Shown: positions 16,873 through 31,629, counted from the stretch's first letter. The stretch is DNA of 64,000 nucleotides from Candidatus Spongiisociaceae bacterium (GCA_965262915.1 OZ253564.1:4288001-4352000), one strand, 5' to 3'. Numbers and translations are program-made. Notes: generated by a model from the sequence alone, not told the origin.

Positions 16873-17061
16873 TCAGCCGCAGCAGGCGTCCATCGATCTC
16901 CCCGCCCACGGGTGCCCGCCATCGGGGATCGTCTCGGCGATCTCGGCGCGGCGACCGGAGCACTCCGGGCATACCCACACGGCTGGAACCCTGGCGCCCG
17001 CCACCACCAGCGAGTGGTACTGATGGCCGCAATCCGGGCAAACGATTCTCAGCACCGGCAT
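16873..17061 (-). CDS. Small zinc-ribbon protein (62 aa) with C-terminal CCG, last gene of the CoM-biosynthesis operon
   Basis: CPDC...CPEC, ends DACCG; GAGAGG RBS; 21 bp after the lyase stop. Confidence 0.7.
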   Translation of the reverse strand: MPVLRIVCPDCGHQYHSLVVAGARVPAVWVCPECSGRRAEIAETIPDGGHPWAGRSMDACCG

Positions 17062-17082
17062 GTTACATCCTCTCGATCCCAC

Positions 17083-18759
17083 TCATCCTTCGGCTAGTTC
17101 CCTAGCCCTCCGGATCAGATCCTTCCTCACCACCGTCTCCCTCTCCTCGATCGCCTCGACCCACCGCATGTTCTGTATGATCTTGGCACCCATCTTGTAA
17201 TAGTGTGCCGACAACCGGGTACTGGCCGATCCACCGGGCACGTCCCGGGAAGCGAGCAGGGACTCCGCGTCGGGGACCGCCCCGAGCGCAGAGACCGACG
17301 GCGCTGGATCGATCCCGCACTCCCGGCATGCCCGCTCGAGATCACCGGTCTCCAGCCGCTCAGTTCCTGACTCGACCGCATTGGCCACCGCCCTGCCGAC
17401 GATCCGGTAGGCGCTCCGGTAGTCCAAATCGTGGTCGAGGACCAGACGCTCCGCCAAGTCGGTGGCGGTGGAGAAGTGGTCCCCTGCCGAAGCCGACAAT
17501 GCATTGGTGTCCACCTGCATGGTCTTCACAACATCGGCCGCCAGTGTTACGAGACGCGTCGCCAGCTGGACGGCACGGATGACCTCACCGCCCGCGTACA
17601 ACCAGTTGTCGGTCCGGGCGGAAGGGGTCCGCTGGGTGACCATCAGGCCGGTGGCCCGTCCGATCAGCGTCCCGCAACCTCCCCGTATGACCGCCAGGGC
17701 GTAAGGGTTACGCTTCTGGGGTAGCAGCACGGAGGCTCGTGATGACGAACCGCCCAACGTCACGTAGCCGAACTGGGGACTGCTGAAGATCTCCAAGTCC
17801 TCTGCGAGGCGATCGACGTTGAGGGCCGCCTGTACCGCAGCAATCGCGCAGTCGACAATGATGTCGGTCGACCACATCCCGTCGCGAATGTGGCCGGTCG
17901 GCTCCTCGAACCCCAGCCGAATGGCCATGCGCATCCGATCGACCGGTATCGACGTCCCGTCCACGCCGCCGGACCCGCCAGGGGACTTGTTCACACCCCG
18001 GTAGCAGTTGCGGATTCTTCGCATGTCCCGCACGGCCTGTTCGGCGAATCCGGCCAGGTAGTAGCCGAACGACGAGGGTTGGGCCGGTTGCAGGTACGTG
18101 GTGTCGTTCCACGGAACGGCGCCCAGTTCCTTCGCCCTGGTCGTCAGGCTCCTGGTCAGGTAGATCACCTCGCGCAACAGGGCGACCAGTTCCTCGCGCA
18201 GCCCGAGCCGGATCGCTATCCGTCCGGCCTCGCGCCTCGTGCGGCCGGCTGGAAACCATCCGGCGGTAGCGCCGAGGCGCCGTTCCAGTTCCCGCTCACG
18301 GCTGTTGTACGCATCCCCGTACACGGACTCGTATGGGAACAACTCGGGCGGGGTTGCGAGAAAGTCGAGGAGCTCACGACACAGCGGGGCCGCCACGCTT
18401 TCGGGAATCACCTGCGCTTCCAGGAGTTCCAGAACATGGGCAAGATCGGCAAAGCCCAGATTCACGTGCAGGATCGGCGCGTCGGACAACTCCATCCGGT
18501 ACCCGGCTTCGATCAGGTGAGCGGACGGACCCGATCCCACTCGCCCCTCCGATCCCAGATACCCCTCCGGAGCCTCTACGACACCACCCAGGGCACCACC
18601 AGCCAGGATGTCCTCGATGTCCCGTCCAAGCTCGTCCTCGGGTGTCGGAGAATCGACTCCAGGCGCCGGACCCGTTATGACCTCTCGAAGTTCCTCCAAA
18701 CGCTCGTGCAAACTCAAGAGGCGCTCGATGATCCGTTCCTTATCGTGCTCTTCCGTCAT
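17083..18759 (-). CDS. Argininosuccinate-lyase-like protein, XcbC-type CoM biosynthesis enzyme
   Basis: TTYLQPAQP (Tyr at the usual His), ASVLLPQKRNP, YRSAYRIVG; clustered with comA and EaCoMT. Confidence 0.8.
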   Translation of the reverse strand: MTEEHDKERIIERLLSLHERLEELREVITGPAPGVDSPTPEDELGRDIEDILAGGALGGVVEAPEGYLGSEGRVGSGPSAHLIEAGYRMELSDAPILHVNLGFADLAHVLELLEAQVIPESVAAPLCRELLDFLATPPELFPYESVYGDAYNSRERELERRLGATAGWFPAGRTRREAGRIAIRLGLREELVALLREVIYLTRSLTTRAKELGAVPWNDTTYLQPAQPSSFGYYLAGFAEQAVRDMRRIRNCYRGVNKSPGGSGGVDGTSIPVDRMRMAIRLGFEEPTGHIRDGMWSTDIIVDCAIAAVQAALNVDRLAEDLEIFSSPQFGYVTLGGSSSRASVLLPQKRNPYALAVIRGGCGTLIGRATGLMVTQRTPSARTDNWLYAGGEVIRAVQLATRLVTLAADVVKTMQVDTNALSASAGDHFSTATDLAERLVLDHDLDYRSAYRIVGRAVANAVESGTERLETGDLERACRECGIDPAPSVSALGAVPDAESLLASRDVPGGSASTRLSAHYYKMGAKIIQNMRWVEAIEERETVVRKDLIRRARELAEG

Positions 18760-29163: not shown

Positions 29164-29185
29164 GAACACGACGGAGGCTCGTGAG

Positions 29186-30769
29186 ATGGCGACTCGAACG
29201 ATGACCATGTGGGACATCCGCAGTCAGGATCCGCTGAGCATCAACGACTGGGGCCCAGAGATCGACTCGATGCTCGAGGACCCGGCGGACAACCGGGTGG
29301 TGTTCAACGTCGACAAGGAGGATACGCGTCCCTACGACGCCATCTTCCTGGGCGGCGGGGCCGCCGGCAGGTTCGGATCGGCCTACATGCGGGCCATGGG
29401 CGGTCGCCAGCTCATCATCGACCGGTGGCCCTTCCTCGGAGGATCGTGCCCCCACAACGCCTGCGTACCCCATCACCTGTTCAGCGAGGTGGCGGCCGAG
29501 TTGATGCTGGCCCGCACCTTCAGCGGGCAGTACTGGTTCCCCGATCTCGACGGGAAGATCACCTCCATCAAGGAGATCGTCGACCTGTTCCGTGCGGGCC
29601 GGATCGCCCCGCACGCCATCATGAACTTCCAGAGCAAGGAGCAGCTCGACCTCGAGTACGTGCTGAACGCGCCCGGGACGATCATCGACGCCCACACCGT
29701 CGAGGTGGCCGGACGGGTCTTCACCGCCAACAACCTGATCCTGGCCCTCGGGGCCCGTCCCCGCCCCCTGGACTGCCCGGGCGCCGACCTCCACGGCGTG
29801 TATACCTACGAAACGCTGGTGGAGGACCTCGACTACGAACCGGGGGATACCGTGGTGGTGCTGGGCGGAGCCAAGACGGCGGTCGAGTACGGCTCCTTCT
29901 TCCAGGCCACGGGGCGCCGCACCATCATGGTGGTCCGTTCCAGGCTGCTCAAGATGCTGGAGGACGCCGAGACACGCAACTACGTGATCACCATGATGGA
30001 AGAGCAGGGCATGGAGATCTGGGAGGGCTCGGTGGCGACCGAGATACATGCGGACGGCGCCGGGAAGGTCAAGGCGATAACCATCTCCACCCCGGACGGA
30101 CCCCGCTACGTGGAGACCGACTTCGTGTTCCACGGTCTGGGCGAGATCCCCAACTCGGAGATGGCTGCCGATGTTCTTGGGGTCAAGCTCAACGACGACG
30201 GAACCACCATCGTCAACCCCCAGATGCAGACCTCGGTGCCCAACGTGTACGCGATCGGCGACCTGATCGGCCCTCCGATGGAGATGTTCAAGGCCCGCAA
30301 GTCGGGCATGTACGCCTCGCGCCACATCATGGGAGAGGACATCCACTACGAGTTCAAGGAGTTCCCCGACTTCCTCCACACCCACTACGAGGTGACCTGG
30401 TTCGGAATGGGCGAGGAGGAGGCCCGCGAGCGCTACGGGGGCGTCACGATCATCAAGATGCCACCCGACTCCGAGGACGGATGGGATGTGGCCCTGCCCG
30501 CCACCGACCGCATGATGCTCTACGCGTTCGCCAAGCCCCGCATGTCGGGATTCCAGAAGCTGATCATCGACTCCGCCTCGCGGAGGGTGGTGGGCGCGCA
30601 CCATGTCGGTGCAGGGGCCAGGGACGCGTTCCAGTACCTGTTCCAGCTCTACCGTCAGGGGCTCACAGTCGACCAACTCGCAGAGATGGACGAGTTGTTC
30701 CTCAACCCGACCCACTTCATCCAGCTCTCCCGTCTGCGGGCCGGCAACAAGAACCTGCAAGACCTGTGA
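29186..30769 (+). CDS. xecC: NADPH:2-ketopropyl-coenzyme M oxidoreductase/carboxylase (2-KPCC)
   Basis: [79 protein letters not shown] before ATG 29186. Confidence 0.95.
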
Positions 30770-31629
30770 ACCGAAGCAGGCAACCCGGCTGGTACGACCT
30801 GGCAGTCACCGAAGAGGTCCGTACCGGCCGGTCGACAAAGCCGCGGTCCAACGGCGTCACCATGGTGATCGATAGCGGCCTGGGCTTGTCACAGACCGAG
30901 GAACTGCTGGATATGGCCGGCCAGTGGATCGACCACTGGAAGCTCAGCTTCGGCACCTCGGCACTCGTACCGGAACCGGTCCTGCAGAAGAAGCTGGAGC
31001 TGATCAACTCGACCGGAACCCTCACCTTCCCGGGCGGAACCCTGTTCGAAGCCGCCACCGCGCACCGGCATTGCCGGCACTACATGCGGGCCGCCGCCCG
31101 GATGGGGTTCAGGGGGGTCGAGATCTCCGAGGGAACCTTCGATCTACCGACCGAACGAAGGCGGCGGGCTGTCCAGTGCGGGCTCGATGCCGACCTGATC
31201 GTGATTACCGAGGTGGGCAAGAAGGATCCCGCCACCCAACCCGCGCCCGAAGAACTGGCCACCCAGGTGCTCCTCGATCTCGAATGGGGCGCATCCTGGG
31301 TCGTGATGGAAGGGCGCGAGTCGGGAACGGGAGTGGGCGTGTTCGACACCGCCGGCCACGTCGACACCGACGCGGTCGATACGATCGCCACGCACATCGG
31401 CGAGGCCAACGACCGGTTGGTATGGGAAGCCCCCCTCAAGGAACAGCAGACCATCCTCATAGACCGGTTCGGGATGAACGTGAACCTAGGGAACATCGCC
31501 CCGGAACGGGTTCTGGCCTTGGAGGCGCTACGTTCCGGGCTACGTTACGAGACGTTGAGATCCGTAACCGCCCGCCTAGCGGAACAGAAGACGCTCGAGA
31601 TCGACCGGCCCGAACCGGAAGATCAGTAG
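30766..31629 (+). CDS. comA: Phosphosulfolactate synthase (first step of CoM biosynthesis; XcbB/ComA)
   Basis: [68 protein letters not shown] overlap with xecC. Confidence 0.93.

Follow-up and report, generated by a model that had tools for sequence, protein, structure and literature searches.

The 64,000-nucleotide stretch analysed here (the window; Candidatus Spongiisociaceae bacterium, GCA_965262915.1 OZ253564.1:4288001-4352000) carries, on the chromosome and in two divergent arms, a cluster of genes for coenzyme M (CoM) biosynthesis and for CoM-dependent epoxide carboxylation. The unit that is conserved is this CoM-synthesis and epoxide-carboxylation module, and the oxygenase is what varies. 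On balance we lean, if only slightly, towards the view that the module is self-sufficient and would act on epoxides independently of their source; gene content, motifs and conservation are what we observed, and it is from these that we infer substrates and fluxes.

Gene content and location of the cluster

A listing of open reading frames (ORFs) with their third-position GC content, together with Pfam and NCBIfam scans, resolves 13 ORFs in two divergent arms between window positions 16873 and 31629. They are given here with the elements between them and with one neighbouring gene.

16873-17082, minus strand: zinc-ribbon ORF, 69 amino acids, Cys-rich, terminal gene of the minus arm
17083-18759, minus strand: XcbC-like (ASL-like) lyase of the aspartase/fumarase superfamily (Pfam Lyase_1 and ASL_C2)
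18756 to about 19760, minus strand: XcbE-like pyridoxal phosphate enzyme of the D-cysteine desulfhydrase family (Pfam PALP)
19700-21046, minus strand: XcbD (ADSL-like), 3-sulfopropionylcysteine synthase (NCBIfam CoM_syn_XcbD)
21043-21954, minus strand: XcbA/DUF7714, Cys-rich [2Fe-2S] reductase (PF24830, 3e-81)
22008-22039, minus strand: hairpin 3' of etnE (folding of the 116 nucleotides past the stop codon)
22052-23158, minus strand: epoxyalkane:CoM transferase (EaCoMT; EtnE/XecA) (PF01717; 78% to the 2-hydroxypropyl-CoM lyase of Xanthobacter autotrophicus Py2)
23373-24125, minus strand: short-chain dehydrogenase/reductase 1 (SDR1), R-hydroxypropyl-CoM dehydrogenase-like (best match PDB 2cfc)
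24126-24182, no strand: divergent intergenic region, 57 bp (from the ORF coordinates)
24183-24950, plus strand: SDR2, S-hydroxypropyl-CoM dehydrogenase-like (second-best match PDB 4gh5)
24955-25869, plus strand: CoA-transferase A (PF01144)
25866-26675, plus strand: CoA-transferase B (PF01144)
26672-28723, plus strand: ADP-forming acyl-CoA synthetase (CoA_binding, Succ_CoA_lig and ATP-grasp_5 domains)
28730-28921, no strand: copy of a dispersed repeat, roughly 200 bp (blastn against the genome)
29186-30769, plus strand: NADPH:2-ketopropyl-CoM carboxylase/oxidoreductase (2-KPCC) (Pyr_redox_2 and Pyr_redox_dim domains; PDB 1mo9)
30808-31629, plus strand: ComA/XcbB, phosphosulfolactate synthase (PF02679, 1e-79)
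33013-33933, minus strand: F420-dependent LLM-class oxidoreductase of the TIGR03564 family, outside the cluster as delimited in the earlier note

The earlier note on this DNA, which had been made from the sequence alone, named gene types that Pfam and NCBIfam all recover where it had placed them; it spoke of 12 genes where there are 13 ORFs, the number that its own list adds up to. The XcbE-like ORF extends further upstream, overlapping xcbD, and the position of its start codon is not fixed. The chromosomal location that had been proposed is borne out, since the window lies within a single contig of 5,055,038 bases, between envelope and central-metabolism genes, and since relatives have the same LytR-UGDH-epimerase flank. 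This flank is common to the loci of two genera of the family, g1 and g7 (see below), which argues for a stable chromosomal position.

Enzymes of epoxide carboxylation and of CoM synthesis

EaCoMT is 78% identical over 99% of its length to the 2-hydroxypropyl-CoM lyase (XecA) of Py2 and is placed within the Xanthobacter-type clade in a quick tree of 83 rows. Its H-x-C ... C motif (H218, C220 and C339), which we take to provide the zinc ligands, is invariant across 21 aligned sequences. By close orthology to a characterised enzyme the protein is an epoxyalkane:CoM transferase in its predicted activity. 2-KPCC aligns over its full length with PDB 1mo9 (792 bits), and its CPHNAC (a CxxxxC redox pair) and FLNPTH motifs are identical to those of 1mo9; the functional meaning of both motifs is assumed here, FLNPTH presumably being the Phe...His that replaces the His-Glu dyad of ordinary disulfide reductases. 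SDR1 finds its best PDB match in 2cfc, the R-hydroxypropyl-CoM dehydrogenase (R-HPCDH; E 1e-63), has arginine in both columns of Arg152 and Arg196 of 2cfc and keeps the Tyr/Lys pair, residues that we take to bind the CoM sulfonate and to be catalytic, respectively. The reference for SDR2, 4gh5, bears the title 'Short-chain dehydrogenase/reductase SDR' and is presumably S-HPCDH. Both SDRs retain the glycine-rich NAD motif, which marks them as dehydrogenases and not as dehalogenases. Judged by sequence, the four enzymes of epoxide carboxylation all appear closely orthologous to Py2 proteins that are characterised biochemically and structurally, and catalytic and substrate-binding residues are conserved among those compared.

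Three of the proteins assigned to CoM synthesis pass the cut-offs of their families, namely ComA (TIGR03849, 302 bits against 280), XcbD (CoM_syn_XcbD, 666 against 600) and XcbA (NCBIfam XcbA family, 366 against 150), and the XcbC-like lyase would convert phosphosulfolactate to sulfoacrylate. The five-step Xcb pathway has been worked out, and in the accessible part of that work XcbA is described as a Cys-rich [2Fe-2S] protein and as the last enzyme of bacterial CoM synthesis, which makes CoM from sulfoethanethioaldehyde (Wu et al. 2022, PMC9457059). Of two Cys-rich proteins listed as unknowns in the earlier note, one is accounted for as XcbA, by PF24830 and by the description just cited, and the other, the 69-amino-acid zinc-ribbon ORF, does lie outside the curated families. 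With ComA, XcbD, XcbA and putative counterparts of XcbC and XcbE standing beside the four carboxylation enzymes, the description of the locus as a complete CoM-biosynthesis and epoxide-carboxylase system is supported.

Distribution of the cluster in a sponge-symbiont lineage

What is known of CoM metabolism in bacteria comes, to our knowledge, almost entirely from a handful of alkene degraders that carry plasmids. An EaCoMT is found on only 3 of 72,556 PLSDB plasmid records, against 225 stretches in species-representative genomes that encode a relative of the enzyme. We examined the best 80 of these 225, and 49 of the 80 loci have a full flank of 10 kb on each side. The closest loci belong to Candidatus Spongiisociaceae, Candidatus Spongiisocius sp. 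and Acidimicrobiia bacteria, and RNA libraries in which the stretch occurs bear the label sponge metagenome; the genome is that of a sponge-associated member of the Acidimicrobiia ('Ca. Spongiisociaceae' relatives).

Within the family, EaCoMT occurs in all genomes of genera g1 (8/8) and g3 (2/2), in 11 of 12 genomes of g7 and in none of the seven genomes of the remaining four genera. The trait is concentrated in this one family of sponge symbionts (21 of 29 genomes, the present one, G000, included), as against 1 of the 395 genomes from outside the family among 401 sampled evenly across the class. Such a concentration suggests that epoxides, or compounds that give rise to them, are regularly present inside sponges, and it gives an abundant uncultured symbiont a concrete, testable function. 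In the 83-row tree, the 26 Acidimicrobiia-type EaCoMT sequences need one label change only and stand beside a soil-actinomycete clade within the Xanthobacter-type group, with EtnE of Nocardioides sp. JS614 on a very long outgroup branch.

The genes between the arms in g7 loci were considered as oxygenases and rejected, as they encode a multi-pass membrane protein that matches no Pfam family and a GT2 glycosyltransferase. The membrane protein lies at L009 7489-9393, L011 7324-8796 and L013 6055-7593 (handles with L denote loci, those with G and C genomes and contigs), and the glycosyltransferase is beside it in L013. Two or three EaCoMT/MetE-like paralogues lie at most 10 kb apart in several CoM clusters of soil actinomycetes (e.g. 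L026, L048, L049, L063, L072 and L076).

A distant di-iron monooxygenase and its relation to the cluster

PF02332 has no match in the window, in agreement with the earlier note, which had found no di-iron monooxygenase in the 64 kb, and an alkene monooxygenase adjoining the epoxide genes, as in an alkene-assimilation operon, is not seen there. A relaxed tblastn search (a diverse set of seven alpha subunits and, besides these, beta, gamma and coupling proteins, E 1e-5), in which the Py2 and JS614 soluble di-iron monooxygenases (SDIMOs) were detected as positive controls, found an SDIMO subunit in none of the 80 closest EaCoMT loci within the fetched flanks. In the whole 5.06-Mb genome PF02332 matches at a single place, C1:1166273-1169136. 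It belongs to the one SDIMO operon of this genome (C1 about 1,164,400-1,171,100; locus L003 6406-15131), which is separated from the cluster by about 3.1 Mb, a distance that on a circular chromosome would shrink to 1.9 Mb in the shorter direction. The further claim of a lineage without an alkene monooxygenase thus fails for this genome, which has an intact SDIMO of six components.

The operon encodes, in this order, a DJ-1/PfpI protein, two NTF2/SnoaL-like proteins, the alpha subunit (521 amino acids), a TmoB-type gamma subunit, an MmoB coupling protein, the beta subunit, a Rieske ferredoxin and a Pyr_redox_2/Reductase_C reductase, followed by an FeS-assembly protein, an ABM protein and an SDR. 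All six components expected of group 1 are there (alpha, gamma, coupling, beta, Rieske and reductase), and the six di-iron ligands of alpha are conserved (E122, ExxH152-155, E215 and ExxH249-252). The arrangement departs from the canonical group-1 order, given in the accessible part of PMC11825192 as alpha-gamma-ferredoxin-coupling-beta-reductase, in that it runs alpha-gamma-coupling-beta-Rieske and ends on the Pyr_redox_2-type reductase. Compared with ToMO and T4MO, the alpha subunit reaches 554 and 530 bits, respectively; it is 47% identical to XamoA, 47% to IsoA of ELW1, about 50% to toluene monooxygenases and 25% to EtnC. Its closest plasmid relative (67%) is encoded in the same atypical operon on plasmid NZ_CP070611.1 of Rhodococcus koreensis. 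In a tree of 16 rows the sponge alphas and that of R. koreensis form a clade (100/100) apart from XamoA and IsoA (99/99) and from the toluene/dioxane clade. From these comparisons the distant SDIMO is an uncharacterised clade of the toluene-monooxygenase group (group 1) and not a recognised alkene monooxygenase. In a related genome (G005:C1:460148-460814) the SDIMO beta matches fall in two adjoining pieces, which may reflect a frameshift or a sequencing error.

Among the 29 family genomes ten have an SDIMO, and all ten are EaCoMT-positive. The 11 EaCoMT-positive genomes without one are G007 and ten of genus g7, in which SDIMO is found in 1 of 12 genomes. The alpha subunit of that single g7 genome (G024:C110; genome in 160 contigs) nests within the diversity of g1, pointing to mis-binning or to a recent transfer. 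Neither an SDIMO nor an AmoC match was obtained from G363 and four g7 genomes that are near-complete, and each of these five has 2-7 P450 matches. Outside the family, the class sample contains five genomes with a two-subunit SDIMO, of other subgroups, and EaCoMT is absent from all five. Another 40 genomes were reached through EaCoMT loci; some SDIMO is present in 19 of them, G446, G450 and G455 (see below) included, and the other 21 have none. AlkB (PF00487) has no match in the present genome, and neither have the copper monooxygenase families PF02461 and PF04896, whose absence is weakly shown as the control genomes gave no match either.

Does the distant operon then turn the locus into one half of an ordinary alkene-assimilation pathway spread over two loci, with the SDIMO serving as a genuine alkene monooxygenase and with propene or ethene supporting growth, as in Py2? 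The earlier note had held that an intact alkene monooxygenase operon elsewhere in the genome would reduce the system to just this. Formally such an operon is there: the SDIMO is intact, XamoA and IsoA fall in its group, its clade is found only in EaCoMT-positive genomes of the family and the sampled class, and its alpha subunit has counterparts of 68-76% identity in three EaCoMT-bearing soil actinomycete genomes (G446, G450 and G455). We nevertheless doubt that the system reduces to an ordinary split pathway, because the SDIMO clade is separate from that of XamoA and IsoA, because in six closed or near-closed relatives SDIMO and cluster are 0.3-3.4 Mb apart and never adjacent, and because 11 of the 21 EaCoMT-positive family genomes have no SDIMO at all. 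Against it speak also the gene order of the SDIMO and its flanks (DJ-1, two NTF2-like, FeS-assembly and ABM), which are unlike those of known alkene monooxygenases, and the many other SDIMOs held by the three soil genomes that share its clade. Taken together, we regard the split pathway as unlikely, if not negligibly so.

Proposed function

In the function that we favour, ComA, the XcbC-like protein, XcbD, the XcbE-like protein and XcbA would make CoM from phosphoenolpyruvate, sulfite and cysteine, and on EaCoMT the CoM thiol would open a short-chain epoxide (epoxypropane, probably also epoxyethane). SDR1 and SDR2 would oxidise the R- and S-hydroxyalkyl-CoM, 2-KPCC would reductively cleave and carboxylate 2-ketopropyl-CoM to acetoacetate with release of CoM, and the CoA-transferase and the ADP-forming synthetase would pass the acid on as its CoA ester. 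In the present genome the most likely internal source of the epoxide would be the unlinked SDIMO of the toluene-monooxygenase family, by true or incidental alkene oxidation, in parallel to methane monooxygenase as the proposed source in methanotrophs; alternatively, the epoxide may arrive from outside the cell. In the SDIMO-less genomes of g7 a different enzyme or an external source would have to supply it. The main benefit would be the removal of a reactive electrophile, with some carbon gained. This picture is drawn by analogy with the methanotroph case, for which the accessible part of Toppings et al. 2024 (PMC11507031) reports the same gene set, without an alkene monooxygenase, from Methylohalobius crimeensis and from about 10% of the methanotroph genomes, and describes the EtnE/CoM cluster as ethylene-induced in Methylohalobius, where it is interpreted as detoxifying epoxide made by the methane monooxygenase pMMO.

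The interpretation offered in the earlier note was that the lineage may use CoM on epoxides produced by other organisms or arising from halohydrins, so as to scavenge or detoxify them; taken strictly, the cluster would do nothing else, the other epoxide producers would belong to the sponge holobiont and the cell's own oxygenases would be uninvolved. The factual part of the note, a complete and chromosomal system in 64 kb free of monooxygenase genes, stands, and its exogenous-epoxide reading fits genus g7 better than the present genome. In g7 EaCoMT is kept almost throughout, the one SDIMO is nested in g1, and an AmoC match was found in none of the five genomes tested; moreover, the present genome has no MEDS hydrocarbon-sensing regulator, unlike loci L018 and L035. 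The presence of the SDIMO in this genome, of P450 genes in all genomes tested and of two cluster SDRs that are dehydrogenases by their glycine-rich NAD motif, and not dehalogenases, makes us consider it quite improbable that scavenging is all that happens. That CoM and the EaCoMT homologue act on a different electrophile or in another role, the resemblance to epoxide metabolism being misleading, could appeal to the CoA-transferase, the synthetase, the LLM enzyme and the zinc-ribbon protein as components without a proven role, and is nonetheless very hard to believe in the face of four enzymes that appear closely orthologous to Py2 proteins, catalytic and substrate-binding residues included.

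Several observations weigh against the self-sufficient epoxide-carboxylation module that we favour. The XcbC-like and XcbE-like proteins find their best NCBIfam matches in CoM_syn_XcbC (383 bits) and CoM_syn_XcbE (215 bits), under the exception-level cut-offs of 575 and 450, respectively. For SDR2, a putative S-HPCDH, 4gh5 is the second-best match (E 1.6e-56), and the unrelated SDR 4dqx scores equally. EaCoMT was not found on the SDIMO plasmid of R. koreensis in the PLSDB search, four P450 genes are present in this genome, and no more than one or two acquisitions may lie behind the co-occurrence of SDIMO and EaCoMT in the family. Finally, the contigs that hint weakly at transcription of the cluster in the sponge may be contaminating DNA, as DNA can be present in RNA libraries. 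These metatranscriptome contigs, from three sponge libraries of one study, fall on EaCoMT (e.g. 251 and 165 nucleotides with no mismatch), SDR2, the synthetase, 2-KPCC and the zinc-ribbon region with 0-18 mismatches and pile up on the dispersed repeat at 28730-28921; they cannot rank genes, and cluster parts without contigs carry no meaning.

The favoured module can be extended to the whole holobiont, as a tentative idea that we think rather unlikely to hold in full. Ca. Spongiisociaceae would have kept, apparently by vertical descent, a regulator-less CoM epoxide carboxylase that consumes short-chain epoxides made in the holobiont and fixes CO2, the epoxides being supplied for instance by ammonia- or hydrocarbon-oxidising co-symbionts or by halogenated metabolites of the host. 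If this were true, the SDIMO-less genus would run the pathway solely on epoxides from outside its own metabolism.

Accessory genes and further features of the window

Three uncharacterised items recur with the pathway, namely the zinc-ribbon protein in the position of XecB, the F420-dependent LLM oxidoreductase and the new SDIMO clade. The zinc-ribbon ORF has the pattern CxxC...CxxC...HPW...CCG, with CCG at the C-terminus, and C15, C18, C38, C41, H57 and P58 are invariant in its alignment. By tblastn it occurs in 62 of the 80 EaCoMT loci, in members of Actinomycetota, Chloroflexota and Proteobacteria, directly after EaCoMT in most lineages and closing the minus arm here. With Xaut_4866, an unnamed ORF between xecA and xecC on pXAUT01, it shares 45% identity (E 5e-14), and it falls in no curated family, the only matches being FmdB-like or zinc-ribbon ones below threshold.

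The LLM oxidoreductase exceeds the cut-off of TIGR03564 (300 bits against 234) and adjoins the CoM cluster in 26 of the 80 loci, among them loci of soil Actinomycetota, in which the same-strand order is LLM-XcbC-2-KPCC, and a Caldilineaceae locus. It is probably a further member of the cluster, specific to F420-using phyla. An F420 ligase is also encoded in the window. An ORF of 481 amino acids between ComA and the LLM gene (31731-33176, minus strand) has a nucleotidyltransferase domain and weakly matches a winged-helix domain; a relative is found at the same position in one related locus only (L019).

The 57-bp region at 24126-24182 presumably holds the promoters of both arms. No regulator gene lies within the cluster, and a search of the genome found no MEDS-domain gene anywhere. 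In two other Acidimicrobiia-type loci, L018 and L035, MEDS and PucR-type regulators are located between the arms. The hairpin that had been noticed after etnE is real, with -64 kcal/mol over 116 nucleotides, a z-score of -4.74 and 0 of 200 shuffles folding as well. It is perfect and G+C-rich, begins 13 nucleotides past the etnE stop codon and is followed by a weak U tract, and is probably an intra-operon attenuator or mRNA stabiliser. The spacer of 460 bp between the synthetase gene and 2-KPCC contains the dispersed repeat, which has 118 blastn matches in the genome, many of them short fragments; eight further copies align over 87-206 bases at 83-92% identity. Elsewhere in the window (55215-63498, minus strand), a protein with SLH and SpoIID domains adjoins a multi-domain glycosyltransferase of 2009 amino acids.

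Comparison with known systems

In gene composition the cluster is a mosaic of genes nearer to those of Xanthobacter and genes nearer to those of JS614, as judged by identity. The Py2 system (xecA-E and xcbA-E on pXAUT01) is the nearer one for EaCoMT (78% as against 47% for JS614), for 2-KPCC (66% to XecC as against 25% to the JS614 flavoprotein) and for ComA (53% as against 37%). It also resembles the present cluster in its small zinc-ribbon ORF, in having SDRs of the R-type and, putatively, of the S-type and homologues of XcbA, XcbC, XcbD and XcbE, and in the same catalytic motifs. In contrast, the Py2 cluster is plasmid-borne and directly follows xamoABCDEF, whereas the cluster described here is chromosomal and in two divergent arms, with the only SDIMO about 3.1 Mb away; and the Py2 locus lacks the genes for a CoA-transferase, a synthetase and an F420-dependent LLM enzyme, all of which are present here.

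The etn cluster of Nocardioides sp. JS614 (pNOCA01; found also in Mycolicibacterium) is the nearer one for XcbA, XcbC, XcbD and XcbE, with 46-56% identity as against 35-46% for Py2. The XcbC-like protein, for example, is 53% identical to the JS614 homologue and 35% to XcbC of Py2, and the XcbE-like protein 46% and 38%, respectively. SDR2 is 61% identical to an SDR of the JS614 cluster as compared to 55% for Py2, and the CoA-transferases (64-65%) and the synthetase (48%) have counterparts in JS614, whereas the Py2 locus gave no match to them. The layout in two divergent arms resembles that of JS614 too. Different from the present cluster, however, in which etnE is followed by the hairpin and the CoM-biosynthesis genes, etnE of JS614 runs directly into etnABCD, and the zinc-ribbon ORF was not found in the JS614 cluster.

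The third system is that of the methanotrophs, whose loci are among the 80 closest EaCoMT loci and which, as far as the accessible part of Toppings et al. 2024 describes them, share with the cluster described here the gene set, the lack of a dedicated alkene monooxygenase and the proposed role in epoxide detoxification. There pMMO is the evident source of the epoxide, and the cluster lies in a genomic island with a MEDS regulator. Here the cluster belongs to an actinobacterium associated with sponges, conservation is family-wide with shared flanks, and neither a MEDS regulator nor a copper monooxygenase was found. In the searchable literature (titles and the beginnings of abstracts, with subscription journals and supplements lying outside) we found nothing that links CoM or epoxide genes to sponges or to Acidimicrobiia. 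A CoM epoxide cluster uncoupled from an alkene monooxygenase has already been published for methanotrophs, to judge from that same accessible part, and what is new here is the host lineage.

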